Below are positions 8,202-31,564 of a stretch of DNA of 40,000 bases, one piece after another. This stretch comes from Metallibacterium scheffleri (GTDB lineage Bacteria > Pseudomonadota > Gammaproteobacteria > Xanthomonadales > Rhodanobacteraceae), in NCBI RefSeq assembly GCF_002077135.1, contig NZ_LDOS01000002.1, forward strand, positions 1,411,865-1,451,864, read 5' to 3'. Numbering within the stretch: position 1 is the stretch's first letter; each line of letters begins with the position of its first letter. The position numbers and the translations under genes are program-made. Below the pieces are notes generated by a model. The model searched no databases. It had not been told where the DNA came from and saw only the letters and a program-made list of their open reading frames with translations.

Positions 8202-8202
8202 C

Positions 8203-8835: not shown

Positions 8836-8844
8836 CCGACCACC

Positions 8845-9862: not shown

Positions 9863-9894
9863 ACAACGGCGCCTGGCGGCTCTGCATTCGGGTG

Positions 9895-10062: not shown

Positions 10063-10065
10063 CCG

Positions 10066-10753: not shown

Positions 10754-10839
10754 TCAGTCACCCTTCACGGTTCAGTCGCACACGCCCGAAGTAAGCGGCG
10801 CAACCCGCGCAGCGGGCTTGCGTCCGCTTGACCGAGTTG

Positions 10840-11347: not shown

Positions 11348-11439
11348 GGACTAATTGTAGCTACAGAAAATGATGCTGTCAACAAAGTTGCGACCACGTT
11401 GAACCAGTTGACTAACAAGAAGTAGACGCTGCATCCGGG

Positions 11440-11570
11440 GTGTTGCACAAGATCGTCCGCCAGGCACGATGGTGCGTCAAGGCGGCTTCCCATGTCGCTC
11501 TTGAGCACGCGGCAGCCGCGCTCGATGTCAGACAGCGTCTTGTAGCTTGGCGTAACGAGTCGCCGCGCGC
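11440..11570 (-). pseudogene. Possible degraded remnant of an IS4/IS1634-type transposase C-terminus
   Basis: YKTLSDIERGCRVLKSDMGSRLD... resembles the conserved ..ERxFRxLKSxL..RP.. block. Short and degenerate. Confidence 0.25.
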
Positions 11571-11574
11571 GCCA

Positions 11575-11712
11575 CCCTTGTCATGAGCGCAGCGAAGATT
11601 CTCGCGCTGCGGCAACCCACCACGCCGAGATCCTTCGGGCCATGCCCTCAGGATGACAATAGAAAAGTGACAACGAAAACCTTTGTCATTCCGAGCGAAG
11701 CAAAGAATCTCG
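11575..11712. repeat. Composite REP (BIME-like) cluster directly downstream of the intact methyltransferase gene
   Basis: Same unit as the junction copies. The intact gene's stop codon lies inside the first REP. Confidence 0.75.
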
Positions 11713-16987: not shown

Positions 16988-18234
16988 CGAGACGCGCTCA
17001 TCCAGCATGACAACCGCCTTGCCACTGCCACTCGGTAGTTGACCCATGTGAACTCGCCTGCCCGTGTCGTCGCATTCAGCGCCATCGTCTTGCGTAGAGC
17101 CGGCGCCTGCTTCAGTTCCTGCATCCGCTTGGCGAGCACGCCCACATCCCGCGGCGGCACGAGGTAGCCATCCACACCATCGCGGACGATATCGCCGTGG
17201 CCGTTCGAGGTCGTGAGCACCGGTAGGCCGCAGGCCATCGCCTCGATTACCACCAGGCCCATGCCCTCGATGAGAGTCGGAAACGCGAATACGTCCGCCT
17301 GCCGGAACAAATCAGCCAATTGCGCGCGTGGCACATGCGGCACATGCCGGAACAGATGGCGCCAGGGCTTCAGCGCGGTGCCGTTGTCCTGCATCTGCCC
17401 TACTAGGGTCAACGTGGTTTTGGCGTCTTGGATCTGCTCGTAGGCCTTGAGCAGGTAAGAAAGGCCCTTGCGCTGGCTGAGCTGTCCTACGAAGACGATG
17501 TTGAAGCTGTCGTCCCACGCAGGCTTGGGTTCGCCCGGGCGAAACAGGGACGTGTCCACCCCGTAAGGGATGACTTCAAGCTTTTCAGCAGGCACGCCCT
17601 CGGCGATGAAGGTGTCGCGGACGAAGCTGGAACCGACCAAGACGTGATCGGCCAACTCGATCTCGCGATCCAGCTGCGCGATCTGCCATGTTGGAAGGTC
17701 ATGGCCGTTGAGTGTCGCGGCAAAGTTGGGTTCAAGCTCGGCCTCCTCCTGCAAATAGCGACGGGTGTAGGCATGATGGGCGAGCGAATAATTCAGTACA
17801 CAAACCGCACCACGCGTTTTGGCAGCCAGAAACGCTGGTTCTGCGCAACCCCAACTGGCAACGACCATGCTTTCATCGCGGAATGCTCGTGCGCCTGCGT
17901 TGGCGATCGCCTTTGCCCAGCGATGCATCAAACGGATTCGCGTTTGCCTGTTCCGCATAGTGCTGTGTGTAAGCCGTGAATGTGCCGCCATCACGATATC
18001 CCAGCCCAGAGCTGCTTGTTGGATGTGTTCACTGATCAAGCGAGCTGGCATCACGCGTCGCCCGAAGGTTTGCGCATAGGCCGAACGCAGCCCCGGGATA
18101 CTCGCAAGAATACGCTCTCCTGCGCGCCCCATATTGGCGTATGGGCGCACATAGCGGGATAGCATTCCCTGCTCGGCCAAGCCCGCAGCCAATTGGTTCA
18201 ATTCCGGGAATGAACTATTAATGACCAGGATCAT
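16984..18234 (-). CDS. GT4-family glycosyltransferase
   Basis: ATGA-coupled start at 18234 (MILVINSSFPEL...). IEGMGLVVIEAMACGLPVLTTS (EX7E). Confidence 0.75.
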   Translation of the reverse strand: MILVINSSFPELNQLAAGLAEQGMLSRYVRPYANMGRAGERILASIPGLRSAYAQTFGRRVMPARLISEHIQQAALGWDIVMAAHSRLTHSTMRNRQTRIRLMHRWAKAIANAGARAFRDESMVVASWGCAEPAFLAAKTRGAVCVLNYSLAHHAYTRRYLQEEAELEPNFAATLNGHDLPTWQIAQLDREIELADHVLVGSSFVRDTFIAEGVPAEKLEVIPYGVDTSLFRPGEPKPAWDDSFNIVFVGQLSQRKGLSYLLKAYEQIQDAKTTLTLVGQMQDNGTALKPWRHLFRHVPHVPRAQLADLFRQADVFAFPTLIEGMGLVVIEAMACGLPVLTTSNGHGDIVRDGVDGYLVPPRDVGVLAKRMQELKQAPALRKTMALNATTRAGEFTWVNYRVAVARRLSCWMSASR

Positions 18235-19694
18235 TTGTGACTCGATGATTCGATGGTGCTGCGGCTGCGCGAAAACGCGGGAGATTTGCCCCAACGAAAA
18301 CGGGTGATCCACATCGCAAGTACCAAAGGCACTACCATGAACAGCATGCGCGACAGGGTGTCGGGCAGGGTTCCGCGCATCAGAATTACCACGAACGGCA
18401 AACCCATGCTGTAGATCAGCAGTGCATTGATATGGCCCTGATAGCGCAGAAACCACCGCCACGACATAGCTAGAACGACGCCGGTAAAAAACATTCCGAG
18501 TGCGACACCGATAAAACCGCTATCAGCATAAAACGGCCCAATGATGGAAAACGCAGCCGATGCGCGCGAGGCAGCGTAATGTGCCGGCCACAGCGCATTC
18601 ACTACAGCACTGTTCATGACCAGCGGCTTATTGGGCCATAGTGGACGCGGTACAGCAGTAACAAACAAATCGGTGAACACACCAGCAGGCTGGTAAGCCA
18701 GCTTGCTTGGTACCACGATCAATTCATTCGTTATTGAATCGAACATTTCATTGTCCGACCCGGTCAATATTTCCTTGAATTGTTGGCCGGGCGCAGCCAA
18801 TGCACTGAACAATATTTCGGTCTTGTCGCGATTCGCCGAGGTAGCAACGGTTCTAACTTCACGCTGCCATCCCATGAGGGAAATCCCGACAATCGCACCA
18901 ATGATCAGTATACGCGCGGCGGGACGCCGCTGCTTCCAGAGATACCAGAAGGTTGGGACCGAGAGCACCAGAGGCAACAACTGGCTACGTGTACCACTTG
19001 CCCCATAGAAAATGATCAACGGCAAGGCCGTGGCCATGAAGGCAATATAATATCTCCTGCGCTTCACCGTAATGGCCAGAGCAAAAAATATGAGCGCCGA
19101 TGCCGCCCACATCGAAATGCCATTATAAAAGTATCCAGTCGAACCCAAATAGATTGCATTGTCCTGACCGGATCTCCCCTTGAGCAAAAAAAGCAACAGG
19201 CTCAAGCCACCGCCTTTTGCAAGAAAGATGCTGAACAATGCCCCTCCGAGTAAGAAGAACATCCATGCTGCTGACGCAGCTCTCCGAGGCTGAAAAGCAG
19301 AAGCGTGCGGGAGATACTTTGCCCATCGAGACGAAAAATTGCTGTGGTAGCCCAATTGGAACGCCAAAATACCTACCAAGACCACCATTAATGCCAAATT
19401 GAATGTCGGCATGATGGGATAACCAAGATGCATCGTTCGCTCCGTCGCAAGATCCGCCAACGGACGGCCAATAAACATCATTGCCATCGCAATCACGCCG
19501 AGCACAAGTGGCTCAAATAAATCAAGCGTACCAAGCAGGGTGCGCAGCAGCACTGGGCCGAGCAGAGCAAGAATGACAGCGTTGAGAAGCAAGCTGCGAA
19601 GTCCAATTCCCGCCAGCCAGATCGCTGTCGCCATCAAGCTGCCGATGAGCGCGAGTTCCCCCAGCACAAGAAAATTTCGTTTAGATCGGCTCAT
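18231..19694 (-). CDS. wzy: Polytopic membrane protein, probable repeat-unit polymerase (Wzy-like)
   Basis: 487 aa with more than 10 hydrophobic segments, lower GC, and a position between wzx and the GTs. No strong sequence motif, so the call is by context. Confidence 0.5.
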   Translation of the reverse strand: MSRSKRNFLVLGELALIGSLMATAIWLAGIGLRSLLLNAVILALLGPVLLRTLLGTLDLFEPLVLGVIAMAMMFIGRPLADLATERTMHLGYPIMPTFNLALMVVLVGILAFQLGYHSNFSSRWAKYLPHASAFQPRRAASAAWMFFLLGGALFSIFLAKGGGLSLLLFLLKGRSGQDNAIYLGSTGYFYNGISMWAASALIFFALAITVKRRRYYIAFMATALPLIIFYGASGTRSQLLPLVLSVPTFWYLWKQRRPAARILIIGAIVGISLMGWQREVRTVATSANRDKTEILFSALAAPGQQFKEILTGSDNEMFDSITNELIVVPSKLAYQPAGVFTDLFVTAVPRPLWPNKPLVMNSAVVNALWPAHYAASRASAAFSIIGPFYADSGFIGVALGMFFTGVVLAMSWRWFLRYQGHINALLIYSMGLPFVVILMRGTLPDTLSRMLFMVVPLVLAMWITRFRWGKSPAFSRSRSTIESSSHK

Positions 19695-19722
19695 TGCCCA
19701 TGTCTCATGAAATCTGGAAATC

Positions 19723-21021
19723 TCATGGCTGCGATGCCCCGTCGAGTGTGGCTGAATCCATATCCCGCTCCGGAATTGAAGTGCCGCTTGACAGTGACGA
19801 TCGCCATGTGAACCAAACCGCGACGGCCAGAGAACCCGCAGATGCAGCTACCACCGCCTGCGCTGCACCAAGTACACCCCAGACCGGAATGCCCACGGCC
19901 AACGCTGGAATGCCAACACCTAGACCGACCAACTCGGCGATAGTCGAAGCGAAAGGTCGCCCCATTCCGCGAAGTCCGTCGGCCAACACTCTGTAGACCG
20001 CACCAAGTAATCCGGCGAACGTCAGGGCTTTCAGGATCGGCGATGCGGGCAAGAATGCGCTCCCGTAAACCAAACGCAGCAAGGGAGATGCCCAGAGCAG
20101 GACCACGAGCAAGGCCAATGTTCCACCTAGTCCTGCAATGCCTGCAAACTTTAAGATAATCTTCATCTGTTCCTGGCGCTGGCTGCACTTTGCCACCTCG
20201 GGCAACACGACTTGACCAAGTGCGAAGCCTTGCGCCCGCAATAAACTGGCCCCGGCCAGTGCTGCCATGTACAGCCCAAGATCATGTACTCCAACCAGCA
20301 TCGTCAGCGCCAGCACGTCGATTTGCAGCCCACTGAACGGCTGTAACGTACCGATATGCGCCGACAAGCCGTAGCGCAAGTCGCCCCAGAGCGTCTTCAC
20401 ATCGAACCAGCCAAGGGGGGACTCTTGACCTCGGCGGACCAGCATCGGCAAGGTCAAACTCAATGCCAGGGCCAACGTCAGCACATTGCTCAGCAGATTA
20501 GCTGATACCACGCTTTCCACATTCATGTGGCCAAATGCCCAAAAGAGCACGAGCAGAAGAACATAGCCAGCAGATACACTCAACCTGACTACATTGAATC
20601 TTGCGTACTGCCCGGAGCCCTGTTGGATGGCATTGATGTAAAGCGTGAGCAGATTGAGCGGCACATAAGCCAGTAGATAGAGAACTGCCAGATGTGCCAG
20701 GACGGTGCCGTGACTCGCTAGCACCACGGGCAACAGCCAAATTCCGAGTGCCGCCAGTACCAACCATTGCAGACCCGCTGCAACTAAGCCATTGCCAAGC
20801 AATTGATGGCGCCGCGCAGGCTCTTTGGCGGATGCATAGGTATATGCAACCGGAATACCCACATTACCTAGATAGGCAAAAAGTGCTGCCCAACTGATCA
20901 CCGCAGCCAACTGGCCGCGCCCGTCTGGCCCAAGCCATCGAGCGACCAAGATCCCAGTAACCAAACCGATGAGCTGGATCGCGATCTGGGCACCGCTGGT
21001 GTAGAAAATTGCCCGCCTCAT
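19723..21021 (-). CDS. wzx: Polysaccharide flippase (Wzx / MOP superfamily)
   Basis: Start at MRRAIFYTSGAQIAIQLIGLVTGILVARWLGPDGRGQLAAV, a typical Wzx N-terminus. About 12 TM segments. Confidence 0.7.
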   Translation of the reverse strand: MRRAIFYTSGAQIAIQLIGLVTGILVARWLGPDGRGQLAAVISWAALFAYLGNVGIPVAYTYASAKEPARRHQLLGNGLVAAGLQWLVLAALGIWLLPVVLASHGTVLAHLAVLYLLAYVPLNLLTLYINAIQQGSGQYARFNVVRLSVSAGYVLLLVLFWAFGHMNVESVVSANLLSNVLTLALALSLTLPMLVRRGQESPLGWFDVKTLWGDLRYGLSAHIGTLQPFSGLQIDVLALTMLVGVHDLGLYMAALAGASLLRAQGFALGQVVLPEVAKCSQRQEQMKIILKFAGIAGLGGTLALLVVLLWASPLLRLVYGSAFLPASPILKALTFAGLLGAVYRVLADGLRGMGRPFASTIAELVGLGVGIPALAVGIPVWGVLGAAQAVVAASAGSLAVAVWFTWRSSLSSGTSIPERDMDSATLDGASQP

Positions 21022-21353
21022 GATGGAGGCAAAAATGGAACATGCGCCGCTTGGCGGGCTAAGTCCGCGAAGCCACGACGGCGCTCTCCGATCATCGTGC
21101 GTGCGCGGCACCGCGCGGCTTCGCGTACTGAGCGCGCGGTCATGTCGTTGCCGGCCGACTGCGAGAAGCCCAGATCAGCCATCAACAGATAGGTGGGGAT
21201 GGCCGCCAAGATCAGCCATTCGCCATAGAGCTGCGTGCCCCAGGCGTGCAGCAGGATCGGCACGCCCGCCAACTGGATGACGACGGCCACCAGTTGCCCG
21301 TAGGCGTTGGCGCCCAGGCCATGCAGGATGCGGCGGGTGACGTGGCGATCCAT
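21018..21353 (-). pseudogene. N-terminal fragment (~75 conserved aa) of a second, different flippase gene
   Basis: MDRHVTRRILHGLGANAYGQLVAVVIQLAGVPILLHAWGTQLYGEWLILAAIPTYLLMADLGFSQSAGNDMTA is a Wzx-like TM1-TM2 plus loop motif, followed by unrelated sequence. Its stop overlaps the wzx ATG. Confidence 0.45.
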
Positions 21354-21655
21354 GGTCAGGCTTGGCCCTCGGTGGCTGCGCCGCAGGCAGGCGCTGGCCC
21401 TCGTGTTGCCTGGCCGTCTACGGCACGCAAGGCGTTGCGCAATTCCGTCAGCGCCAGTCCGACGGCCCTGGTATGTGCAAAAGGCATCCGCCCCCCGATC
21501 CATGTCAGCGCTGCGCACGCCGCGGGTGCGCGCCATGTGCTTCGGCGTCAAGGTCCGCGCCGTGGCGCCGTGAGTATAGAAGCCCGATCGCAGCGAAAGC
21601 AGCCGTGCCGGCTCAAGGCAATCTTACGATTACGACAGGATGCCATTACGCGGGC

Positions 21656-21799
21656 TCATCGCGCTTCGGTGCGCGTGATTTCGCGCGCCACGACGCGCGC
21701 GAGGATGCACGGCTGCAACGGCACGAAACCGGCGGCATCGGTCAGGTGACGGCTGAGAGGCGCGCCGTGGCTGGCGCTGTCGCCCGGCACGCGCACGCC
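21656..21799 (-). pseudogene. C-terminal remnant of an MntA-like nucleotidyltransferase gene
   Basis: GVRVPGDSASHGAPLSRHLTDAAGFVPLQPCIL... parallels GVRVLGDSTRHGALLSRHLTDVADFVPLQRRIL of MntA at 23108/25935. A REP lies upstream. Confidence 0.6.
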
Positions 21800-21811
21800 G
21801 AGGGAAACGCG

Positions 21812-21850
21812 AAGAGCGAGATCCTTCGCTGCGCTCAGCAACATGACAAA
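21812..21850 (-). repeat. REP element
   Basis: GAGATCCTTCGCTGCGCTCAGCAACATGAC. Confidence 0.65.
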
Positions 21851-21867
21851 AGCACGGGATGACGCGG

Positions 21868-21903
21868 CGTGAGCATGGTGGCTTGTTCGCGGGTCAGGCA
21901 CAT
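21868..21903 (-). pseudogene. Stub (first ~12 codons) of an eighth small MNT gene
   Basis: CATGGGTTATTCCAAGCC junction and ...GGCTTGTTCGCGGGTCAGGCACAT align with the 5' ends of the seven MNT genes. Cut off by the REP. Confidence 0.55.
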
Positions 21904-21906
21904 GGG

Positions 21907-22383
21907 TTATTCCAAGCCGAGGCCGAAACGCTGGCCGATGTGTTGCAGGATCGTCTCGATGCGGGCGGCAGCGTCGAAGCCTTGATTGAGGTAGGCGGCG
22001 CGCAATGCGGGTTCGTCCGGGTATTCGTGGGCAACGTGGTTGCGCAGGGCGCGCAGTTTTTCCCATGATTCGGTGCTTTCGAGCAGGCCGAGCTTCTCCA
22101 GCCGGTTGAGCTTGTCCAGCATGGGCCGGTCTTCGTAGGGCTCCTGCAGCACATCGAGCACCGCCGGAAACAGACGCGTGTCCAGCACGTCTTGCAGCTT
22201 GCCGAAGCGCAGCACGAATTGATCGATGTCCTGCACGGCGTCATCGTCGAGATCCGCCAGCGTGGCGGCGCTGAGCGGCCTGCGCGGCGCGATGGAGGCC
22301 AGCGCATGGCGCATGTGGTGGCGGTGGCGCAGGGCTTGCCGCCACACGTCCTGCAAGCGCTGTTGATGGGAGTCGCCGCTCAC
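21907..22383 (-). CDS. HEPN-domain protein, HI0074-like (partner type 1, copy 1)
   Basis: GTGA overlap with the upstream MNT. R-x4-H motif LRALRNHVAHEY near the C-terminus. Confidence 0.7.
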   Translation of the reverse strand: MSGDSHQQRLQDVWRQALRHRHHMRHALASIAPRRPLSAATLADLDDDAVQDIDQFVLRFGKLQDVLDTRLFPAVLDVLQEPYEDRPMLDKLNRLEKLGLLESTESWEKLRALRNHVAHEYPDEPALRAAYLNQGFDAAARIETILQHIGQRFGLGLE

Positions 22384-22685
22384 AGCAGCACCCCCGTGAC
22401 CTTGGCGGTCGTGATGATGTCGCGCGCGGCGCCCAGGACCGGTGCGTCGAGGATCAGATCGATCTTTTGTTCGCCAAGCGCGCGTTGCAGTCGTGCCAGC
22501 ATCGCGATGCTGTCGCGGGCCAATGCGTCGGGCTGGGTTTGCGTGGTTTGCACCAGCAAGTCGATGTCGCCGCCGCGCTTGGCATCATCCACGCGCGAGC
22601 CGAACAGCCACACGCGCGCATCGCTGCCGAAGACCTCGGCGGCGGCGCTGCGGATGATGGCGGCTTGTTCGGGAGTCAGTCGCAT
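22380..22685 (-). CDS. Minimal nucleotidyltransferase (MNT), C-terminal type alpha, copy 1
   Basis: MRLTPEQAAIIRSAAAEVFGSDARVWLFGSRVDDAKRGGDIDLL carries the GS..x..DxD NTase motif. Confidence 0.8.
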   Translation of the reverse strand: MRLTPEQAAIIRSAAAEVFGSDARVWLFGSRVDDAKRGGDIDLLVQTTQTQPDALARDSIAMLARLQRALGEQKIDLILDAPVLGAARDIITTAKVTGVLL

Positions 22686-22729
22686 GGGGTCAGCGGGTTT
22701 GCAGGTTGTCATTGGGCATGACGCATGGC

Positions 22730-23123
22730 CTACAGCGCGAACGCGCCGAAATCGTCCAGATGTCGATGCACGATGCGATGCACGATCTGCCAGTCGATGG
22801 CACGGTAGCTGTGCACGGCCACGTTGCGGAAGCCGACCGCGCCGCGCAGGCGTTGCGCAAACCCGGCGTCGAGCACGCCCGCGTCGGCGAGGCGCGCGAA
22901 GGCTTCACCCATGGTTTGCGGCGCGGGCAGTCCGCTGGCGGCAATCCAGTGCGCTGCGATGTCCACGCACAATTGCACGGCGCGCGTCAGATTCACGGCG
23001 ACGATGGTCTTGCGCATCGATGTCACGCGCGAGGTCCTCGGCAAGTGGCGGGCACTTGTCGTGGGGGCGCCGCGTGCATAGCCGCGGCGATTCGACTTTC
23101 TGCTCGATCAGCGCCCGATCCAT
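22730..23123 (-). pseudogene. hepT: HepT (DUF86 HEPN RNase toxin), frameshifted copy
   Basis: Starts MDRALIEQKVES..., then shifts frame. One extra G (GATGGTCTTGCG vs GATGTCTTGCG at ~23005) relative to the intact copy 25537..25950. The RNVAVHSY motif is retained downstream. Confidence 0.75.
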
Positions 23124-23533
23124 CGCTGCCTCCGCGCGTCGAGGATGCGCCTCTGCAGCGGCACGAAGTCGGCCACATCGGTCAGGTGACGGCTGAGCAG
23201 CGCGCCATGCCGGGTGCTGTCGCCCAGCACGCGCACACCGTGGCTGAGGATTTGCCCGAGCAACAGCTCGCCGGCAGCGGCCAGGTCGATCAGGTCCACC
23301 GGGCGGCCGGTGGCCATCGCCAGATCGCTGATCAGGGCGATGATCTCGTCGGCGTGCAGCGGTCGATCGGCGCCCACGGCCAGATCGAGGTCGCTGTCGG
23401 GCCGCGCCGTGCCGCGCGCCAGCGATCCGAACAACATCGCGAAGTTCACCTGCGGGTGCCGCGCCAGCACGGCGCGCAGTTGGCTGGCCAGCGGCTCGGG
23501 CGCGATGGGGTTGGGCTGCGCGGTCATGTTCAC
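23108..23533 (-). CDS. mntA: MntA-type nucleotidyltransferase antitoxin (type VII TA), copy 1
   Basis: FAMLFGSLARGTARPDSDLDLAV is the GSxxRG..DxD motif. GTGA overlap with the upstream small MNT. Overlaps the hepT start. Confidence 0.8.
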   Translation of the reverse strand: MNMTAQPNPIAPEPLASQLRAVLARHPQVNFAMLFGSLARGTARPDSDLDLAVGADRPLHADEIIALISDLAMATGRPVDLIDLAAAGELLLGQILSHGVRVLGDSTRHGALLSRHLTDVADFVPLQRRILDARRQRWIGR

Positions 23534-23829
23534 AGCTCGATCCCGGTTTCATGAGCGATACGCACGATGGCGCGGGTGTCATCGGGGTGCTGGATGACGA
23601 CATCGATCTTGCGCTCGCCGAGGCTTTCCTCGAGCTTGCCGAGAAAGCGCACCTTGCGCATGAAAGACTCGACTGCGGGCAGTTGCGCGGCTTCGATCAG
23701 CAGATCGATATCGCCGCCGCGCTTGCTGTCGTCCACGCGCGAGCCGAACAGCCACACGCGCGCGTCGCTGCCGAATACCTCGGCGGCGGCGCTGCGGATG
23801 ATGGCGGCTTGTTCGGTGGTCAGGCGCAT
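23530..23829 (-). CDS. Minimal nucleotidyltransferase (MNT), C-terminal type beta, copy 1
   Basis: Conserved N-terminal 44 aa followed by IEAAQLPAVESFMRKVRFLGKLEESLGERKIDVVI... Confidence 0.8.
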   Translation of the reverse strand: MRLTTEQAAIIRSAAAEVFGSDARVWLFGSRVDDSKRGGDIDLLIEAAQLPAVESFMRKVRFLGKLEESLGERKIDVVIQHPDDTRAIVRIAHETGIEL

Positions 23830-23832
23830 GGG

Positions 23833-24309
23833 TTATTCCAAGCCGAGGCCGAAACGCTGGCCGATGCGTTGCAGGATCGTCTCGATGCTGGCGGCCGCGT
23901 CGAAGCCTTGATTGAGGTAGGCGGCGCGCAATGCGGGTTCGTCCGGATACTCGTGGGCAAAGTGGTTGCGCAGGGCGCGCAGTTTTTCCCATGATTCGGT
24001 GCTTTCGAGCAGGCCGAGTTTCTCCAGCCGGTTGAGCTTGTCCAGCATGGGCCGGTCTTCATAGGGCTCTTGCAGCACATCGAGCAAGGCCGGAAACAGG
24101 CGCGTGCCCAGCACGTCTTGCAGCTTGCCGAAGCGCAGCACGAATTGATCGATGTCCTGCACGGCGTCATCGTCGAGATCCGCCAGCGTGGCGGCGCTGA
24201 GCGGCCTGCGCGGCGCGATGGAGGCCAGCGCATGGCGCATGTGGTGGCGGTGGCGCATGGCTTGCCGCCACACGTCCTGCAAGCGCTGTTGATGGGAGTC
24301 GCCGCTCAC
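23833..24309 (-). CDS. HEPN-domain protein, HI0074-like (partner type 1, copy 2)
   Basis: Differs from 21907..22383 at roughly half a dozen of 158 residues by eye. LRALRNHFAHEY motif. Confidence 0.7.
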   Translation of the reverse strand: MSGDSHQQRLQDVWRQAMRHRHHMRHALASIAPRRPLSAATLADLDDDAVQDIDQFVLRFGKLQDVLGTRLFPALLDVLQEPYEDRPMLDKLNRLEKLGLLESTESWEKLRALRNHFAHEYPDEPALRAAYLNQGFDAAASIETILQRIGQRFGLGLE

Positions 24310-24611
24310 AGCAGCACCCCCGTGGCCTTGGCGGTCGTGATGATGTCGCGCGTGGCGCCCAGGACCGGTGCGTCGAGGATCAGATCGATCTTTTGTTCGC
24401 CCAGTGCGCGATGCAGCCGGGCCAGCATCGCGATGCTGGCCCGGGCCAGTGCGTCGGGCTGGGTTTGCGCGGTTTGCACCAGCAGGTCGATGTCACCACC
24501 GCGCTTGCTATCGTCCACGCGCGAGCCGAACAGCCACACGCGCGCGTCGCTGCCGAATACCTCGGCGGCGGTGCTGCGGATGATGGCGGCTTGTTCGGGG
24601 GTCAGACGCAT
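24306..24611 (-). CDS. Minimal nucleotidyltransferase (MNT), type alpha, copy 2
   Basis: Last 101 codons of ORF 24306..25298. ATG at 24611. Confidence 0.8.
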   Translation of the reverse strand: MRLTPEQAAIIRSTAAEVFGSDARVWLFGSRVDDSKRGGDIDLLVQTAQTQPDALARASIAMLARLHRALGEQKIDLILDAPVLGATRDIITTAKATGVLL

Positions 24612-24625
24612 GGGTGGGATTGGAT

Positions 24626-25111
24626 TCAAGGCGCGTGCGGATTCGCGGGCAACAGGCCCAACCGCCGGCCGAGACTGCGCAGGCGCAGAATCACACCGGC
24701 CAGGATCTCGGTGGCCTCGCGGATGGCCTGCAGCACCTCGGGCATGGCAGCGGCTTCGAGGTCGTAATCGTGGGTGAGGCGATTGCGCAGGGCGCGCAGT
24801 TCCATCCACACCTCGGCCTGCTCGATCAAGTCCTGACGCACCGCCCAGTCGATCACGTCCGCGAAGCCGCGATAGCGCTCGCCGATCATCGCGTGGGCGT
24901 GCCGCAGCGCGGCGGAGAGCTGGTCCTGCAGCTTGGTGTAGCGGTCGTTGATGGATGCCAGGCGCTCGAGCACCTCGGCATTGTCGAGATCGCCGGGCGC
25001 GAGCGCCTTGGGCAGGCGCTCCAGCGAATAACGCAAACCCGACTCGATGCGCGTCAGCACCTGCAGTTGCTGTTGCAGCAGGGCCTGCTGCTGGGCGAAC
25101 AGGGCGCTCAT
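24626..25111 (-). CDS. HEPN-domain protein, HI0074-like (partner type 2)
   Basis: ATGA-coupled start at 25111 (MSALFAQQQALL...). LRALRNRLTHDY motif. Confidence 0.7.
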   Translation of the reverse strand: MSALFAQQQALLQQQLQVLTRIESGLRYSLERLPKALAPGDLDNAEVLERLASINDRYTKLQDQLSAALRHAHAMIGERYRGFADVIDWAVRQDLIEQAEVWMELRALRNRLTHDYDLEAAAMPEVLQAIREATEILAGVILRLRSLGRRLGLLPANPHAP

Positions 25112-25410
25112 GCCAGCGGCACTCCGGTGAGGCGCGCGATTTCGTGGATGGGTTGCGGACGGGTGCCCACCGCGCGCACCACGATGTCGATGCGCTGCTC
25201 GCCCAGCCGTTGCTGCAGCAGGCTCCACAGCCGTGCTTGCCGCTGCACCACCGAAGCACTGGTTTGCGCGGTTTCCAAATACAGGTCGATGTCACCACCG
25301 CGCTTGGCGTCGTCCACGCGCGAGCCGAACAGCCACACGCGCGCGTCCGCGCCGAAGACCTCGGCGGCGGCGCTGCGGATGATGGCGGCTTGTTCGGGGG
25401 TCAGGCGCAT
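25108..25410 (-). CDS. Minimal nucleotidyltransferase (MNT), type gamma
   Basis: Conserved N-terminus followed by YLETAQTSASVVQRQARLWSLLQQRLGEQRIDIVV... The ATG at 25410 is preferred over the upstream TTG. Confidence 0.8.
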   Translation of the reverse strand: MRLTPEQAAIIRSAAAEVFGADARVWLFGSRVDDAKRGGDIDLYLETAQTSASVVQRQARLWSLLQQRLGEQRIDIVVRAVGTRPQPIHEIARLTGVPLA

Positions 25411-25436
25411 GGGGCTGTTCAATGGGCTGCGGAGTG

Positions 25437-25525
25437 AGACTGAGATCCTGCGCTGCGCTCAGGATGACACGGCGGAAGCGCGGAGAAGCGCAGGTGTCTT
25501 TCGCTGCGCTCAGGATGACTGACCA
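25437..25525 (-). repeat. Two REP elements between hepT copy 2 and MNT-gamma
   Basis: GATCCTGCGCTGCGCTCAGGATGAC and TCTTTCGCTGCGCTCAGGATGAC. Confidence 0.7.
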
Positions 25526-25536
25526 TTTGCAGGTTG

Positions 25537-25950
25537 TCATTGGGCATGACGCATGGCCTCCAGCGCGAACGCGCCGAAATCATGCAGGTGCCGATGCACG
25601 ATGGTGTGCACGATCTGCCAATCGATGGCGCGGTAGCTGTGCACGGCCACGTTGCGGAAGCCGACCGCGCCGCGCAGGCGTTGCGCAAGCCCGGCGTCGA
25701 GCACGCCCGCGTCGGCGAGGCGCGCGAAGGCTTCGCCCATGGTTTGCGGCGCGGGCAGTCCGCTGGCGGCAATCCAGTGCGCTGCGATGTCTACGCACAA
25801 TTGCACGGCGCGCGTCAGATTCACGGCGACGATGTCTTGCGCGTCGATGTCACGCGCGAGGTCCTCGGCACGTGGCGGGCACTTGTCGTGGATGCGCTGC
25901 GTGCATAGCCGCAGCGATTCGACTTTCTGCTCGATCAGCGCCCGATCCAT
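25537..25950 (-). CDS. hepT: HepT (DUF86 HEPN RNase toxin), intact copy
   Basis: 137 aa; MDRALIEQKVESLRLC... with GFRNVAVHSY (the RNxxxH HEPN motif). Confidence 0.8.
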   Translation of the reverse strand: MDRALIEQKVESLRLCTQRIHDKCPPRAEDLARDIDAQDIVAVNLTRAVQLCVDIAAHWIAASGLPAPQTMGEAFARLADAGVLDAGLAQRLRGAVGFRNVAVHSYRAIDWQIVHTIVHRHLHDFGAFALEAMRHAQ

Positions 25951-26360
25951 CGCCGCCTCCGCGCGTCGAGGATGCGCCGCTGCAGCGGCACGAAGTCGGC
26001 CACATCGGTCAGGTGGCGGCTGAGCAGCGCGCCATGCCGGGTGCTGTCGCCCAGCACGCGCACGCCGTGGCTGAGGATTTGCCCGAGCAACGGCTCGCCG
26101 GCAGCGGCCAGGTCGATCAGATCCACCGGGCGGCCGGTGGCCATGGCCAGATCGCTGATCAGGGCGATGATCTCGTCGGCGTGCAGCGGTCGATCGGCGC
26201 CCACGGCCAGATCGAGGTCGCTGTCGGGCCGCGCCGTGCCGCGCGCCAGCGATCCGAACAACATCGCGAAGTTCACCTGCGGGTGCCGCGCCAGCACGGC
26301 GCGCAGTTGGCTGGCCAGCGGCTCGGGCGCGATGGGGGTGGGCTGCGCGGTCATGTTCAC
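25935..26360 (-). CDS. mntA: MntA-type nucleotidyltransferase antitoxin, copy 2
   Basis: 141 aa. Three differences from copy 1 by eye. Confidence 0.8.
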   Translation of the reverse strand: MNMTAQPTPIAPEPLASQLRAVLARHPQVNFAMLFGSLARGTARPDSDLDLAVGADRPLHADEIIALISDLAMATGRPVDLIDLAAAGEPLLGQILSHGVRVLGDSTRHGALLSRHLTDVADFVPLQRRILDARRRRWIGR

Positions 26361-26656
26361 GGCTCGATCCCGGTTTCATGGGCGATACGCACGCTGGCGC
26401 GGGTGTCGCCGGGGTGCTGGATGACGACATCGATCTTGCGCTCGCCGAGGCTTTCCTCGAGCTTGCCGAGAAAGCGCACCTTGCGCATGAAAGTCTCGAC
26501 GGCGGGCAGTTGCGCGGCTTCGATCAGCAGGTCGATGTCGCCGCCGCGCTTGGCGTCGTCCACGCGCGAGCCGAACAGCCACACGCGCGCGTCGCTGCCG
26601 AAGACCTCGGCGGCGGCGCTGCGGATGATGGCGGCTTGTTCGGGGGTCAGGCGCAT
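26357..26656 (-). CDS. Minimal nucleotidyltransferase (MNT), type beta, copy 2
   Basis: ATG at 26656. About 6 aa differences from 23530..23829. Confidence 0.8.
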   Translation of the reverse strand: MRLTPEQAAIIRSAAAEVFGSDARVWLFGSRVDDAKRGGDIDLLIEAAQLPAVETFMRKVRFLGKLEESLGERKIDVVIQHPGDTRASVRIAHETGIEP

Positions 26657-26683
26657 GGGCTGGTTCAATGGGCGGCGGCGTGT

Positions 26684-26715
26684 AACCGGGATCCTTCGTT
26701 GCGCTCAGGATGACA
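26684..26715 (-). repeat. REP element between the intron 3' end and MNT-beta copy 2
   Basis: GGATCCTTCGTTGCGCTCAGGATGACAG. Confidence 0.65.
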
Positions 26716-26795
26716 GGGAACCTGAGGTGCGATGCGGCTGCATGTCAACTCGAATCCGATAGGGGTCGGGAAGGCTCATCACCTCCCCGCCCTCC

Positions 26796-26828
26796 GAACC
26801 GTGCGTGCGGTTCTCCCGCACACGGCTC
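26796..26828 (-). ncRNA. Group II intron domain V
   Basis: The reverse complement is identical to 1222..1254. Confidence 0.8.
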
Positions 26829-26845
26829 TCCAGTGGGTGGTTGCT

Positions 26846-28177
26846 TCATCGAGATCGGCACGCCAAGGCATGGGCTTGGGTTAACGTGAAAAGCCCCTGC
26901 TGAGCGAAGTAGCTATTGGGCCAGCGCTGATGGTCCTCGCGGGTGTGACCGTGCCCACGCCGACCCTCGTATGCACGAAGGATAGAGCGCAGACGCCGGC
27001 GGATAAACCCGTCGAGCTTGCTGAAAGTGATCCGGTGGGCATGCCTGAAGTACTGGTACCAGCCCCGCAGCATCGGGTTGATCTGGCTGATGATGCTCGC
27101 CAGCGAACGCCCCTTGGTACGCGGCGTGTGCTGTCGAATTTTGTCCAGCATCGCGTTCCAGCTCTTCGTGCGTACCCGGCGTTGACCGGCCTCGAACCGA
27201 TAGCCCAGAAACTCGAACCCGCGGCCTACCTGTCGGCAGTCGCCGACGTGGGTCTTGTCCGGGTGCAAGGTCAGCTCGTGGGCGTCCACCCACGTGCCAA
27301 TCTCGGCCAGCGCACGTTGCGCCTCATCCGCGGTCTGACACAGCACCACGAAGTCATCGGCATAACGCACCATCCGATAGCCGCCTGCGGCCATCGTCTC
27401 GTCGAGCCCATGCAGGTAGATATTGGACAACAGCGGACTGATCACCGCACCCTGCGGCGTACCGCCCGTGGGGATCCAGCGTTCCAGTCCCGCCATCACT
27501 TCCTGCTTGAGCCACGATTCCAGCAAGCGCAGTACGCGGCCATCCGCGATCTGCTCGCGCACCCGCGCCATCAGACCGGCGTGCGGAATGCTGTCAAAGT
27601 AGCCGGCAAGGTCGGCATCCACCACATGGCAATACCCCGCCCGCAGCAGTGCATCCACCTCCCGCAGCGCACGCTTGGCACCGCGGCCGGGCCGAAACCC
27701 GTAGCTGTGTGCGCAAAAGATCGACTCGAAGATCGGCTCAATCACCAGCCGTACCGCCGTTTGCACCACGCGATCCTTCACCGTCGGTATCCCCAGTGGA
27801 CGGGTTTGGCCCCGCCCTTTGGGAATCTCGACCCGCCTGATCGCTTGGGGCCGGTACGTGTCACTGCGCAGCGCCCTCGCCAGCTCGTCGAGGTAGCGCT
27901 CGGCATGGGCCGCGAACGCGTCCACACTTTGACGATCCACCCCGGCCGCTCCGCAATTGCGCACCACCCGTCCCCACGCCGCTTGCAGCGTCGCCGGACG
28001 CATCACCTTGTCCATCAGGCTGAACCATTTTCCTCCCTTCACGCCGTTGTCCAGCGCTGCCAACATTCGGTCCGTCCATACCGAGGCTTCCACCCAACTC
28101 CAATCGCGAGTCTGGGTATCTTCATCGTGCTTAGCCGTTACCGGCACTTGCGATGAGTTTGCGTGCATCGTTCTCAA
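26846..28177 (-). CDS. Group II intron-encoded reverse transcriptase/maturase
   Basis: 443 aa. RT blocks include [14 protein letters not shown] and YADDFVV. Maturase X domain with RGWYQYF. No HNH/En extension. Confidence 0.9.
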   Translation of the reverse strand: MRTMHANSSQVPVTAKHDEDTQTRDWSWVEASVWTDRMLAALDNGVKGGKWFSLMDKVMRPATLQAAWGRVVRNCGAAGVDRQSVDAFAAHAERYLDELARALRSDTYRPQAIRRVEIPKGRGQTRPLGIPTVKDRVVQTAVRLVIEPIFESIFCAHSYGFRPGRGAKRALREVDALLRAGYCHVVDADLAGYFDSIPHAGLMARVREQIADGRVLRLLESWLKQEVMAGLERWIPTGGTPQGAVISPLLSNIYLHGLDETMAAGGYRMVRYADDFVVLCQTADEAQRALAEIGTWVDAHELTLHPDKTHVGDCRQVGRGFEFLGYRFEAGQRRVRTKSWNAMLDKIRQHTPRTKGRSLASIISQINPMLRGWYQYFRHAHRITFSKLDGFIRRRLRSILRAYEGRRGHGHTREDHQRWPNSYFAQQGLFTLTQAHALACRSR

Positions 28178-28604
28178 CCTCCCGAATCCACCTTCCTGCC
28201 TCCCTTCCCTCCACGCGGTTTTGCTAGCCGCGCTTCGCGGACCTCAACTCAAGATCCTGCGGTACTACGAAGGCTCTGACTCCCGCACCCGTTCACATCG
28301 GGCGCGGGTCTCCCCGCTTACTGCATCGCACCTTCCCAATGTTCCGTCCCCAACCACACGGTGTGCCCGATCATCGCTTTGACAGCCACCTCAGCGTGAT
28401 CGGTGAGTTCCAGGCTTCGCCATGAATGAGCAGGCTCGCCGCAACACCCCGCCGAAACGGGTTCGCTTTACTACGGACCATCAGTTCGCTTCCGGTTGCT
28501 CTCCACCCCGCCTCTCAGCGACGCAGTTACCTTCAACTACAGGGCCTGTGGCTTGCCCCGACGCGGATTTGCACCGCGCTGATACGATGCCCTCACGGGC
28601 GCAC

Positions 28605-28812
28605 TCATTCCCGCGAAGGCGGGAATCCAGTGACACTTGCGGACTGGATGACCAGCTTCGCTGTTGGTGAAGCGCCTCCCGCCTGCGCGGGGATGACGAG
28701 GCGAAAGCGCGGGATGGCAGTTTTCAGTTGTCATGCTGAGGCCGACGGCCGAAGCATCTCGCCTTGGGGCGTGGCGATGACGCGAAAAGCGAGATCCTTC
28801 GCTGCGGTCACT
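28605..28812 (-). repeat. REP-rich tract upstream of the intron, including the target hairpin
   Basis: On the minus strand, CACTGGATTCCCGCCTTCGCGGGAATGA lies immediately 5' of the intron GTGCG. A second CCCGCCTGCGCGGGG hairpin lies at ~28672..28697, along with two GATCCTTCGCTGCG-type REPs. Confidence 0.7.
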
Positions 28813-28932
28813 CTCCAGGGCCGGCAAATCGGGCGCCGGCTGGCGACGCCAGTCCGCAACTGACTCGGTGAGTACGCGGGCGTGCTGGTCGGCTTCCCAG
28901 GCAGCGGCAGCAAGTCGGTTGTGCGCGATCAT
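28810..28932 (-). pseudogene. HEPN partner (type 3) of MNT-delta, truncated after ~40 codons
   Basis: ATGA-coupled start. MIAHNRLAAAAWEADQHARVLTESVADWRRQPAPDLPALE, then only REP-derived sequence. No R-x4-H motif remains. Confidence 0.5.
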
Positions 28933-29246
28933 GCGTCCACCATCAGGATGCCGTGGCGCTGGGCCTCGGCCACCACGGGGCGTGGATCGGGCTCGCCCTG
29001 CGCGGTGATCACCATATCGATGCGCTGCTCGCCAAGGCTGCGATACAGGCGTGCGGCATAACGTGTGCGACGCCGCACCAGCTCGGCAGGCGCGAGCCGA
29101 TCACGGGTTTCGATCAGCAGATCGATGTCGCCGCCGCGCCTGGCGTCGTCCACGCGCGAGCCGAACAGCCACACGCGCGCGTCCGTGCCGAAGACCTCGG
29201 CGGCGGCGCTGCGGATGATGGCGGCTTGTTCGGGGGTCAGGCGCAT
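28929..29246 (-). CDS. Minimal nucleotidyltransferase (MNT), type delta
   Basis: Conserved N-terminus followed by IETRDRLAPAELVRRRTRYAARLYRSLGEQRIDMVI... Confidence 0.8.
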   Translation of the reverse strand: MRLTPEQAAIIRSAAAEVFGTDARVWLFGSRVDDARRGGDIDLLIETRDRLAPAELVRRRTRYAARLYRSLGEQRIDMVITAQGEPDPRPVVAEAQRHGILMVDA

Positions 29247-29250
29247 GGGG

Positions 29251-29739
29251 TCAGTGCTCCTCGATCAGGCCGCGACGCGTGAGATCGGCCAGCAGGGCGC
29301 GCGCGGCCCTGGCAAGTATGTGCAGATGCGCGTGCGCCGTCTGCAGTGCATCGGCCAGTATGGCCGGGTCTTCGATGTAGTCGTGCACCATGCGATTGCG
29401 CAATTGGCGCAGCGCCATCCAGTGCTCGGCAGACTCGATGATGCGCCAGCGTTCGGCACGATCGAGGTTGTCCGTCATCGGCCCGACAGGCTCACCGAGC
29501 GCGGCGAGCCATGCCGGCAGCAGCTTGTCGCCAACCGTATCCTGCAGGCGGCCGAAACGGCTGACGAAGGCATCCACGCGCTCGGCCAAGTCGGCATCCT
29601 GGCGTAGTGCAAGTGCTTGCACGGGCGTGAAGGGCACGGCGAACAGTCGCTGATCGGTGGCCTCGGCGTGCGCGACCTCGCGCGCCACGACACGCGCGAG
29701 GAATTGCAAACGTTGCCGCAAATCCGCGGGTGTATTCAC
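29251..29739 (-). CDS. HEPN-domain protein, HI0074-like (partner type 4)
   Basis: GTGA-coupled start at 29739. LRQLRNRMVHDY motif. Confidence 0.7.
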   Translation of the reverse strand: MNTPADLRQRLQFLARVVAREVAHAEATDQRLFAVPFTPVQALALRQDADLAERVDAFVSRFGRLQDTVGDKLLPAWLAALGEPVGPMTDNLDRAERWRIIESAEHWMALRQLRNRMVHDYIEDPAILADALQTAHAHLHILARAARALLADLTRRGLIEEH

Positions 29740-30035
29740 AAGCTCACCCCCTGGCTTCTGGCGATATCGTGAATGGGCAGGCGCAGCAGATCCGGCGCTA
29801 ACAGCAACACATCCACTTTGCGTCCATGCAGGCCGCGTTGCACGCGTGCAGCCATGCGCGCGGCGCTGAACGCAGGGTTGGCAATGGGCTGGTCGCATTC
29901 GATCAGCAGGTCGATGTCGCCGCCGCGCTTGGCGTCGTCCACGCGCGAGCCGAACAGCCACACGCGCGCATCGCTGCCGAACACCTCGGCGGCGGCGCTG
30001 CGGATGATGGCGGCTTGTTCGGGAGTCAGGCGCAT
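29736..30035 (-). CDS. Minimal nucleotidyltransferase (MNT), type epsilon (first gene of the array)
   Basis: Conserved N-terminus followed by IECDQPIANPAFSAARMAARVQRGLHGRKVDVLLL... Confidence 0.8.
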   Translation of the reverse strand: MRLTPEQAAIIRSAAAEVFGSDARVWLFGSRVDDAKRGGDIDLLIECDQPIANPAFSAARMAARVQRGLHGRKVDVLLLAPDLLRLPIHDIARSQGVSL

Positions 30036-30043
30036 GGGTCTGT

Positions 30044-31564
30044 TCAATGGGCTGCGGAATGAGGCCAGGATCCTGCGCCGCGCCCGGCACCCACAATCGT
30101 TTCCAGGCGATGCCTCGATTCCCGTCCTCTGGAGCTTAGATCGACCTTGCCGCCGCGCGCCAACCAGGCGCACAGTATCGCCAGCGTGGCCTCCAGCGCC
30201 AGCGTGCGCAGCGCGTAATCGACCGTGGCGTGCAGCAGCAGCACCAGCACGCCCGCGGCCGCGGCGCGCGCGATCAGCGCGGACAGCGTGGCGTTGCCAG
30301 CGGATGGATCGTCAGCGATCGGCGCGCGCCACGCACGCAGGCTGCGCCACGCCCATCCACCCACGAAGGCCAGCATCAGCAGCAGCGCGGGGATGCCACC
30401 TTCCAGCCACAGCTCGAGGTAGTCGTCGTGGGCGTGGTTGACGTAGGGCGGGATCAGCGTGGCGCGCGCCTGGAACTGCGGCAGCACATGCACGAAGCTG
30501 CCGATGCCGCTACCCAGAAAGCCATAGTGTTGGGCGGCGATCCAGGTGGTGCGCATGATCCACCAGCGCGCATCCTCGAACGGGTCCTGATGCAAGCGCG
30601 CCAGCACCGCGTACAGGCCCCACTGCAGCGCCAGCATGGCGATGACCAGCAACGCCAGCGCCATGCGCCGTACCAGCCGCGGCTTGACCTGGCCGGCGCG
30701 CCAGGCCAGCACCACGATGGCGACCAGGGTCAACGCGCCCAGCGCCACGCCGGCGCGCGATTGCGTCAGCAGCAGCGCCACCAGCAGGGTCGCCAGCGTG
30801 ACCCACCACGCCGCCATGACCAGCATGCGACGCGCCGCGCGCGCACCCGGCTGCAGCCACAGCGCGATCAGCCAGGCGGCGCTCAGCAGCATGCCGATGT
30901 TGAGCAGGTCGGCGAAATGATCGCGATTGGCGAAGAAGCCCTCGGCGCTGGTGCGCTGGGTGTAGGCGAACAGCCGCAACGGGCTGTCCGGCCCACCCGC
31001 CACCTGCGCGAAACCCAGCAGCGCGCCGGCCAGCGCCAGCAGCGGGATCAGCAGGGTGAGGCGCAGCAATTCGCGCCGCGAGAGCGTGAGCGCGGCCAGG
31101 AACAGGGCCGCCGCCGGCAGCATGGCCAGCCACGCACGCCAGGTGCCGGCCGGATCGAGGCTGAGCGGCGCCCAGTGCGGCGCGATGCCGACGCTGGCCT
31201 GGTCCGCGGCCAGCGCGGCGCGACCGGGCAACGCGGTCCACAGAGCGGGCGGCAACGGCAGCAACTGCAGCAGGGGCAACAGCAGCACCGCCAGCAGCAG
31301 GATGCATTCGGCGCGATGGTCACGCAGCAGGTGCGCGGGCCACGCCGCCACCAGCAGCACCGCCAGCAACAGACCCAGCGCGATGACGATGGCGTCGCCG
31401 GGCAGGCCTTGCATGGTGCCGCCGCCGAGCAGCAGGGCCGCGGCCAGCACCAGCATGGCGCAGGCTGCGATCAGCCGCTGCGGCCAGGATCGGGCGTGAT
31501 CGGAGTGCGCGGTGGTTGAAACGAACGCGGCCCGGCGCAAGGCCGGGCCGGGGATCGTGACCAT
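30044..31564 (-). CDS. O-antigen ligase-like (Wzy_C/WaaL-family) polytopic membrane protein
   Basis: 506 aa with many TM segments and an LLTQSRAGVALGAL-type loop motif. The last ~15 codons run into the conserved MNT leader and REP sequence. Confidence 0.6.
   Translation of the reverse strand: MVTIPGPALRRAAFVSTTAHSDHARSWPQRLIAACAMLVLAAALLLGGGTMQGLPGDAIVIALGLLLAVLLVAAWPAHLLRDHRAECILLLAVLLLPLLQLLPLPPALWTALPGRAALAADQASVGIAPHWAPLSLDPAGTWRAWLAMLPAAALFLAALTLSRRELLRLTLLIPLLALAGALLGFAQVAGGPDSPLRLFAYTQRTSAEGFFANRDHFADLLNIGMLLSAAWLIALWLQPGARAARRMLVMAAWWVTLATLLVALLLTQSRAGVALGALTLVAIVVLAWRAGQVKPRLVRRMALALLVIAMLALQWGLYAVLARLHQDPFEDARWWIMRTTWIAAQHYGFLGSGIGSFVHVLPQFQARATLIPPYVNHAHDDYLELWLEGGIPALLLMLAFVGGWAWRSLRAWRAPIADDPSAGNATLSALIARAAAAGVLVLLLHATVDYALRTLALEATLAILCAWLARGGKVDLSSRGRESRHRLETIVGAGRGAGSWPHSAAH

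Follow-up and report, generated by a model that had tools for sequence, protein, structure and literature searches.

We report that a toxin-antitoxin (TA) gene array in a 40,000-nt window of the Metallibacterium scheffleri genome contains a real, directly oriented segmental duplication. The array, made up of type VII-like cassettes, is located at 21.6-30.1 kb, where small genes for MNT nucleotidyltransferases (putative antitoxins) are arranged head to tail, every one with a HEPN gene (putative RNase toxin) behind it; all coordinates given here are positions in the window, and the genes of the blocks and cassettes described are on its minus strand. Two blocks are each present twice, namely block B, comprising beta, MntA and HepT, and block A, comprising alpha and HEPN-1. 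The explanation that we consider best overall, and to which we give about an even chance of being correct, is a fixed direct duplication of beta-MntA-HepT together with alpha-HEPN-1, which would have arisen by exchange between sequence modules shared by the MNT genes, is roughly as old as the splits between the sampled species and was followed by the loss of one HepT.

Self-BLAST of positions 21000-30500 aligned the two copies of block B at 96.4% identity over 1135 nt (40 substitutions and 1 indel) and those of block A at 95.1% over 814 nt (40 substitutions), both on the same strand with E = 0. An independent repeat search concurred, giving spacings of 2827/2828 for block B and 1926 for block A. 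Block A continues 29 nt into the next MNT module, and its copy I overlaps copy II of block B by 32 nt; the two blocks therefore constitute one 1926-nt direct repeat. The first copy of this repeat is interrupted by 911 nt (25525-24615), as against 9 nt at that place in the second; the 911 nt contain two repetitive extragenic palindromic (REP) elements, a leader denoted L1, gamma, HEPN-2 and the leader of alpha1. A preliminary description of this DNA had given the same gene order and the same two pairs of near-matching blocks, both of which are borne out. It had also stated that the copies differ by a few residues per protein, which agrees with the 3-7 amino acid differences that we counted (beta 6/99, MntA 3/141, alpha 7/101, HEPN-1 6/158), although copies that are 95-96% identical are not near-identical.

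The same description had raised the possibility that the duplication is an artefact of assembly (an expanded repeat), which we now regard as extremely improbable. We counted 81 positions at which the copies are unlike, among them a frameshift and a nonsense codon, and differences of this kind could not be produced by a collapsed or expanded repeat. Moreover, a separate draft assembly of the same strain (GCA_004798955.1, contig MWQO01000038.1, here L114), which starts within the group II intron of the array, is colinear with the window and identical to it through 16357-26990, across all junctions, save for 2 mismatches at its contig end. This second assembly was also matched in an exact-protein look-up of beta1; look-ups of HEPN-1a and MntA1 returned no match.

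The array begins with a Wzy_C-like gene, which is followed by epsilon and its HEPN, by delta and a truncated HEPN, and by beta1-MntA1-HepT1. REPs and the group II intron come after the truncated HEPN of delta (Rfam match at 26759-26830). The middle of the array consists of two REPs with leader L1, gamma-HEPN-2, alpha1-HEPN-1a and beta2-MntA2-HepT2psi (psi, pseudogene), and its end of a 12-nt linker, alpha2-HEPN-1b, a 29-nt stub termed rem3, a REP, a 3' remnant of MntA, a flippase stub and a flippase. The small MNT genes of the window are seven paralogues, all of which have in common a 135-nt module that forms the 5' third of the coding gene.

The homology boundaries of the copies were fixed by base-by-base alignment, and three of the four fall at or in this module. 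Boundaries 26659/23832 and 24614/22688 are both located 3 nt before an MNT ATG, which is the 5' edge of the module, and 23801/21875 lies inside it, at +29. The fourth, 25526/22698, lies 11 nt past the HepT stop, at a REP edge. The earlier statement that every breakpoint coincides with the module thus holds for three boundaries and fails for one. The statement that the junctions differ is correct: in copy II, alpha2 begins 44 nt after a premature TAG in HepT2 and 23 nt after the original TGA, and in copy I, HepT1 is followed by the two REPs, leader L1 and gamma. A further joint, HEPN-1a-TAACCC-ATG-module-beta2, is located at a module.

We compared the window with related arrays, which differ in cassette order. 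G009 reads MntA-HepT-REPs-alpha-HEPN1-gamma'-HEPN2' (truncated)-flippase; G011, flank-MntA-HepT-REPs-gamma, at which its contig ends; the sister species G015, flank-L1-alpha-HEPN1; and L071, HEPN1-module stub-REPs-L1-gamma-HEPN2. L109 carries delta-deltaH-beta-MntA-HepT-REPs-REP-MntA remnant-flippase, and L110, L111 and L112 carry epsilon-epsilonH-beta-(HEPN stub)-MntA. L116 contains Wzy-beta/MntA remnant and, further on, delta-deltaH-mazEF-alpha-HEPN1-stub-REPs-L1-gamma-HEPN2-beta. The B-G-A-B-A order of the window (G, gamma-HEPN-2) was found in none of these.

Several features of the array are shared with these relatives. The rem3-REP junction after HEPN-1b is common to the metagenome contigs L071 and L116; the +29 boundary stems from this old truncation of a module by a REP, and not from a crossover there. 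The stretch from this REP into the MntA remnant is orthologous to positions 2212-2916 of L109 at 95.9% identity, so that the remnant predates the split from the L109 lineage. A reading of rem3 and the MntA 3' remnant (which is 84-85% identical to MntA1/2 by self-BLAST) as a decayed third copy was rejected, since they are shared with L071/L116 and with L109 and are hence older than the duplication. The REP start found after HepT1 also follows HepT in G009 and G011, which argues that copy II most likely lost a REP cluster. The linker CCCGCTGACCCC that joins HepT2 to alpha2 resembles the L2 leader of G009/G011, ..CCCGCGG(T/C)GGTCCTGACCC(C)-ATG, which precedes alpha in G009, and also the deltaH tail before beta in L109, ACCCACTGACCCC-ATG. 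Finally, gamma and HEPN-2 are present in the arrays of G009, L071 and L116, gamma alone in that of G011, and gamma-like and HEPN-2-like genes in an array of Acidithiobacillus marinus. This indicates a resident cassette, and the earlier proposal of a foreign module spliced between the copies was rejected on these grounds.

The shared module itself shows signs of repeated exchange. It is 88-98% identical between MNT types, with perfect runs of 32-69 nt, and comparison across genomes revealed four switches of the MNT 3' half behind a conserved upstream context. HepT-REPs-L2-module leads into alpha in G009 and into gamma in G011, the MntA-HepT sequences of which differ by just 1.9%; HEPN-1-TAACCC-module leads into beta in the window and gamma' in G009; flank-L1-module leads into epsilon in the window and alpha in G015; and the tail of the epsilon HEPN with the module leads into delta in the window and beta in L110/L111/L112, which are three independent assemblies. 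The REP-L1 leader likewise stands before other MNT types in relatives. Module identity is 92% among window paralogues of different types and 87% within the A. marinus array, as compared with 75% across genera, and third codon positions of the module are 87% identical within the window versus 53-58% across genera. The 3' halves of the MNT genes cluster by type across genera (~65% nucleotide identity) and are unrelated or unalignable within a genome (36%). Among modules, 18 of 45 informative site pairs failed the four-gamete test, and nearest-neighbour modules disregard cassette type. These data show that the module evolves in concert within each genome, in two genera. Together, the four switches, the concerted evolution and the four-gamete failures render recombination at the module well supported as a process.

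Under the explanation that we favour, two MNT modules would have exchanged by RecA-type homologous recombination, either between sister chromosomes out of register or by way of an excised circle. Such an exchange would join HEPN-1a directly to a module and the 3' half of beta, and HEPN-1a-TAACCC-ATG-module-beta2 would be the novel joint. HepT2-12 nt-alpha2 would probably represent the ancestral HepT-to-alpha adjacency, as in G009, minus the REP cluster, a reading based on a match of ~12 nt, and gamma/HEPN-2 with its REP-L1 leader would be a resident cassette that occupies a different slot here. The HepT of copy II was inactivated afterwards. Excision of an alpha/HEPN-1 circle and its reinsertion at modules would convert an L116-like L1-alpha-HEPN1-gamma-HEPN2-beta arrangement into the L1-gamma-HEPN2-alpha1-HEPN1a-beta2 of the window, with all of its junctions. 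A route to B-G-A-B-A consisting of one unequal crossover and one insertion or deletion, starting from the orders of the relatives (B-A-G, A-G-B, B-G), was rejected because it did not reproduce the REP-L1 leader before gamma together with the 12-nt leader before alpha2. The unequal crossing-over at the module that was proposed earlier is therefore supported by the relatives and by concerted evolution in so far as it involves module exchange, whereas a simple two-step history misses junctions.

The age of the duplication was estimated from synonymous divergence (dS) between the copies, which is 0.045 for MntA, 0.073 for HEPN-1, 0.087 for beta and 0.196 for alpha. Flank orthologues in the sister species G015 have dS values of 0.06-0.13 for three long genes and 0.00 for a fourth, a 202-aa open reading frame. 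Given the overlap between these ranges, the duplication is moderately old and roughly contemporary with the splits between the sampled Metallibacterium species, and not recent, as had first been supposed. Copies of block B differ from each other by 3.6% and from L109 by 4.4/5.4%, and copies of block A by 4.6% as compared with 6.4-8.5% to full-length relatives; the copies are thus closer to each other than to any relative, indicating a lineage-specific origin, which gene conversion could mimic. Polarisation with outgroups assigns about twice as many changes to copy II as to copy I.

The HepT gene of copy II carries two lesions, a 1-nt insertion at 23007 (+1 frameshift) and a GAG>TAG change at 22730-22732, with its HepT match split over two frames; both lesions are identical in L114. 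A HepT2 fragment of 104 aa spans 22730-23044. The reading frames of beta2, MntA2, alpha2 and HEPN-1b are intact. Ratios of nonsynonymous to synonymous divergence between copies (alpha 0.19, MntA 0.22, HEPN-1 0.23, beta 0.36) show that these four genes have been retained under purifying selection since the duplication. We infer that the net effect of the duplication would be one extra alpha/HEPN-1 TA pair together with the toxin-less putative antitoxin genes beta2 and MntA2, which may back up neutralisation of HepT1.

A number of points weigh against a duplication through module exchange. On the copy I side, boundary 25526/22698 is a REP edge, and on the copy II side 12 nt separate it from the alpha2 module downstream; there is no one path that yields all of the junctions, and the left edge of the 911-nt difference falls at the REP edge and not at a module. 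The 12-nt leader of alpha2 does not match that of alpha1 or the sequence that follows HepT1, and its likeness to the G009 leader extends over ~12 nt with a gap and could be due to chance. Boundaries at the 5' edge of the module are gene-start boundaries as well, so any cassette-wise rearrangement would look alike. Excision and reinsertion of a circle leaves the rest of the array unexplained, and no short series of events covers the whole. Neither SNP patterns nor nearest neighbours locate a crossover inside the module, since conversion has scrambled the modules, which carry no type signal. The comparison with sister strains that had been suggested yielded other permutations in relatives and no unduplicated form in the same species, and several of the relatives are contigs of short-read metagenome-assembled genomes, possibly chimeric at repeats. 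The divergence between the copies is itself irregular: derived synonymous changes number 16 in copy II and 4 in copy I (p = 0.012), divergence is uneven among genes (alpha 7.3% versus MntA 1.9%, Fisher p = 0.0005), and each block contains an abnormally long identical run (192 nt in MntA, p = 0.018; 150 nt in HEPN-1, p = 0.009). A plain intragenomic duplication of a single age does not predict these irregularities, which would be compatible with gene conversion at a later time or with an allele of foreign origin.

Gene conversion is central to one alternative, in which the duplication is older than the splits between the sampled species, the copies were kept 95-96% alike by conversion and the relatives lost one copy. 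The two long identical runs and the significant gene-to-gene differences in divergence point in this direction, as do the intact module after HEPN-1a, which matches G009, the truncated module and REP after HEPN-1b, which match L071 and L116, and the second, decayed beta/MntA copy held by each of L109 and L116. However, two alpha/HEPN-1 copies occur in no relative examined, and the differences span the full length of both blocks and are not restricted to the outside of a few conversion tracts; we consider this history possible but unlikely. An imported allele would instead imply a pseudo-duplication, in which DNA of another strain with a B-A-flank order, as in G009, recombined into a resident B-G-A array, through one crossover within an MNT module and a second among the flanking polysaccharide genes, such that the copies are diverged alleles and not paralogues. 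Divergence between the copies equals that between species, the majority of derived changes are on copy II, synonymous ones included, the cassette orders required exist in relatives, and the array abuts a variable O-antigen/exopolysaccharide (EPS) cluster that has itself been replaced from ~21132 leftwards relative to L109. Copy II is, however, no closer than copy I to any sampled relative, and the REP-MntA remnant and flippase stub beside it are orthologous to L109 at an ordinary 96%, so the flank bears no sign of separate ancestry. We find this alternative decidedly doubtful.

The REP edge at one boundary of the 911-nt difference raises a further alternative, namely that the array was rearranged by REP-REP recombination or illegitimate joining and that boundaries coincide with modules only because cassettes start with one. 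REPs or REP clusters are located at HepT-to-next-gene junctions in the window, G009, G011 and L109, and beside rem3 and the MntA remnant. This REP type, GTCATCCTGAGCGCAGCG, has ~21 copies (<=2 mismatches) in the 3.76-Mb genome, and 14 copies (<=3 mismatches) in the 40-kb window, in or beside two TA arrays (2905-11657 and 25451-26714). No REP is present, however, at the HEPN-1a-to-beta2 joint or the HEPN-2-to-alpha1 junction, nor, in the four cross-genome switches, between the upstream context that is conserved and the 3' half that diverges, which makes an origin through REPs improbable. As a separate observation, the sequence just 3' of the group II intron (26727-26758) recurs together with the REP and L1, without an intron, downstream of HepT in L109 (2113-2150), and a similar sequence is located upstream of gamma in L116 (about 6950-6990). 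This recurrence looks like a longer repeated leader unit, X-REP-L1-module.

Table 1. Features of the duplicated part of the array, with positions in the window
Feature	Positions	Strand	Details
Block B, copy I	25526..26659	-	beta1 26357-26656; MntA1 25935-26360; HepT1 25537-25950; 11-nt tail
Two REPs and leader L1 before gamma	25414..25525	-	REPs 25502-25519 and 25451-25468; L1 = ..GCAGCCCATTGAACAGCCCC; left part of the 911-nt segment that copy II lacks
gamma MNT, 100 aa	25108..25410	-	Pfam NTP_transf_2/Polbeta below cut-off; 71% amino acid identity to A. marinus m4
HEPN-2, 161 aa, RNRLTHDY	24626..25111	-	52% identity to A. marinus h3
Block A, copy I	23801..24614	-	alpha1 24306-24611; HEPN-1a 23833-24309; first 29 nt of beta2
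Block B, copy II	22698..23832	-	beta2 23530-23829; MntA2 23108-23533; HepT2 pseudogene 22709-23123
HepT2-to-alpha2 linker, 12 nt, CCCGCTGACCCC	22686..22697	-	leader type L2; relic TGA
Block A, copy II	21875..22688	-	alpha2 22380-22685; HEPN-1b 21907-22383; stub rem3 21875-21903 (29 nt)
REP and MntA 3' remnant	21694..21837	-	REP 21807-21837; remnant 21694-21803; adjoins flippase flank

The encoded proteins were assigned by searches against profile models. With 89.6 and 138.5 bits, respectively, MntA1 and HepT1 exceed the cut-offs of 60 set for the type VII TA equivalogs in NCBIfam, and they have PDB relatives 5YEP, 6M6U and 7AER; by this measure they are bona fide type VII TA proteins. The small MNTs reach 18-24 bits against NCBIfam MntA (cut-off 60). 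Among alpha, beta and gamma, beta alone passes Pfam NTP_transf_2 (28.1 versus 21) and Polbeta (27.7 versus 26.9), and alpha and gamma fall below both cut-offs. For HEPN-2, matches to Pfam NTase_sub_bind (27.2 bits, cut-off 31.8), HepT-like and TIGR01987 HI0074 are all below cut-off, and for HEPN-1 the profile searches gave no match to any family model. HEPN-1 carries RNHFAHEY, an Rx4HxY motif, and is 41% identical to the HEPN partner of epsilon. Corresponding motifs in the translations are RNVAVHSY in HepT, RNRLTHDY in HEPN-2 and GSRVDDAKRGGDIDL in the MNTs, such that Rx4HxY is found in the ~160-aa partners and GSx10DxD in the small MNTs. The alpha, beta and gamma pairs thus resemble the MntA/HEPN family by motif and gene order, with curated cut-offs not reached except by beta in Pfam. 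Promoter and terminator scans returned nothing above shuffled background.

Further observations concern individual cassettes. The beta gene (25935-26656 and 23108-23829, with MntA) stands as an orphan here, whereas related metagenome contigs (loci L117, L118, L110 and L119) carry a dedicated HEPN behind it, which is 62-71% identical to the partner of a beta-like MNT in A. marinus. This HEPN is reduced to 27 codons in L110, and in L119 it is a chimera of beta-HEPN residues 1-28 and HEPN-1 residues 29-117. In the window, the stop of beta overlaps MntA, the first 18 codons of which are unlike those of MntA in G009 and G011. Given the orphan beta, the cut and chimeric HEPNs and the divergent MntA start, beta-MntA-HepT looks like a fusion of two cassettes after toxin loss. 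The alpha1 coding sequence contains a perfect 28-nt palindrome (24417-24444; -30 kcal/mol, z = -3.1) that is kept in G009 and G015. In its alpha2 counterpart (22491-22518), 5 substitutions disrupt the palindrome (-15.6 kcal/mol, z = +0.6), and 9 of the 22 differences between the alpha copies lie within 48 nt around the alpha1 palindrome.

Four pairs of MNT and HEPN genes belonging to this family make up the A. marinus array (L113; MXAV01000040.1, 4001-7442). Judged by their 3' halves, three of the MNTs are orthologues of beta, epsilon and gamma, yet the 5' module of all four is specific to that genome. Its gamma-like MNT pairs with a HEPN other than that in Metallibacterium, and its HEPN-2-like gene pairs with another MNT. 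In the window, the homology shared with L109 starts at the REP at 21836, takes in the MntA remnant and flippase stub, and ends at ~21132; beyond this point, the window and L109 differ in flippase and polysaccharide genes, which marks a replacement breakpoint of the O-antigen/EPS cluster. Within the flippase stub, a 57-nt stretch (21063-21119) is 81% identical to the middle of HEPN-2 (24857-24913), and a 43-nt match at 84% identity links the tail of the MntA remnant (21663-21705) with the start of the HEPN gene of epsilon (29660-29702).

The duplication itself is an ordinary evolutionary event, and the behaviour of the array is of more interest, in that the 5' module is homogenised and the cassettes are permuted in every relative. 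Speculatively, and with low confidence in the three parts of this proposal taken jointly, the module, often with a REP-L1 leader, may be a portable recombination site and the array an integrase-free cassette system; general homologous recombination may duplicate, delete and reorder cassettes consisting of an MNT 3' half and a HEPN and swap them between strains; and homogenisation of the module within a genome may be maintained since it allows the set of HEPN RNase toxins to keep changing. If so, the duplication described here would be one frozen product of such shuffling. It provides a dated, well-resolved example of a TA array rearranging through a coding-sequence repeat, in which the toxin of the redundant pair was lost first and the antitoxins persist, giving toxin-less antitoxins that might cross-protect against HepT1. 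Together with a concerted module in two genera and a cassette order that differs among every relative sampled, this makes it possible to test in a concrete system whether shuffling of TA or defence cassettes can proceed without a dedicated recombinase.

Tandem and segmental duplications in bacteria can form by unequal homologous recombination between short direct repeats, in RecA-dependent duplication-amplification. As in that process, the copies described here are direct and adjacent, a short shared module is found at three of the four boundaries, and a redundant gene decayed later. In contrast, the repeat is the 5' third of a protein-coding gene, and not an insertion sequence, an rrn operon or a REP, and the copies have persisted to 4-5% divergence rather than collapsing. 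The array may also be compared with the type VII HepT/MntA systems (Shewanella oneidensis SO_3165/3166; Aphanizomenon HEPN/MNT; PDB 5YEP, 6M6U and 7AER). MntA1/2 and HepT1 pass the family cut-offs, with Rx4HxY in HepT and GSx10DxD in MntA, and the small MNT/HEPN pairs share motifs and gene order with these systems; this likeness is one of sequence, and the toxin and antitoxin roles are predicted from it. Unlike in these systems, beta is present as an extra small MNT that appears to have become fused upstream once its HEPN was lost, the pairs of alpha, gamma, delta and epsilon do not reach the family cut-offs, and HEPN-1 matches no model.

Clusters of multiple MNT and HEPN genes have been described in extremophilic archaea (Anantharaman et al. 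2013, PMC3710099). Like the array of the window, these contain several MNT-HEPN dyads side by side in one locus; however, that paper gives the clustering only, without a concerted 5' module, permuted orders or an internal duplication. In the literature that we searched, neither concerted evolution nor module-mediated shuffling is described for MNT/HEPN arrays. The arrays of TA cassettes in integrons and superintegrons offer a further comparison. No integrase gene or attC site turned up here, in an analysis that included no dedicated search for either, and the sole mobile-element gene noticed in 21-31 kb was the group II intron reverse transcriptase. Unlike in integrons, the boundary sequence lies within coding sequence, and the exchange is probably general homologous recombination. 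As in integrons, the cassettes are small and have TA cargo, their order and content vary among close relatives, and a short conserved sequence is found at each cassette boundary.

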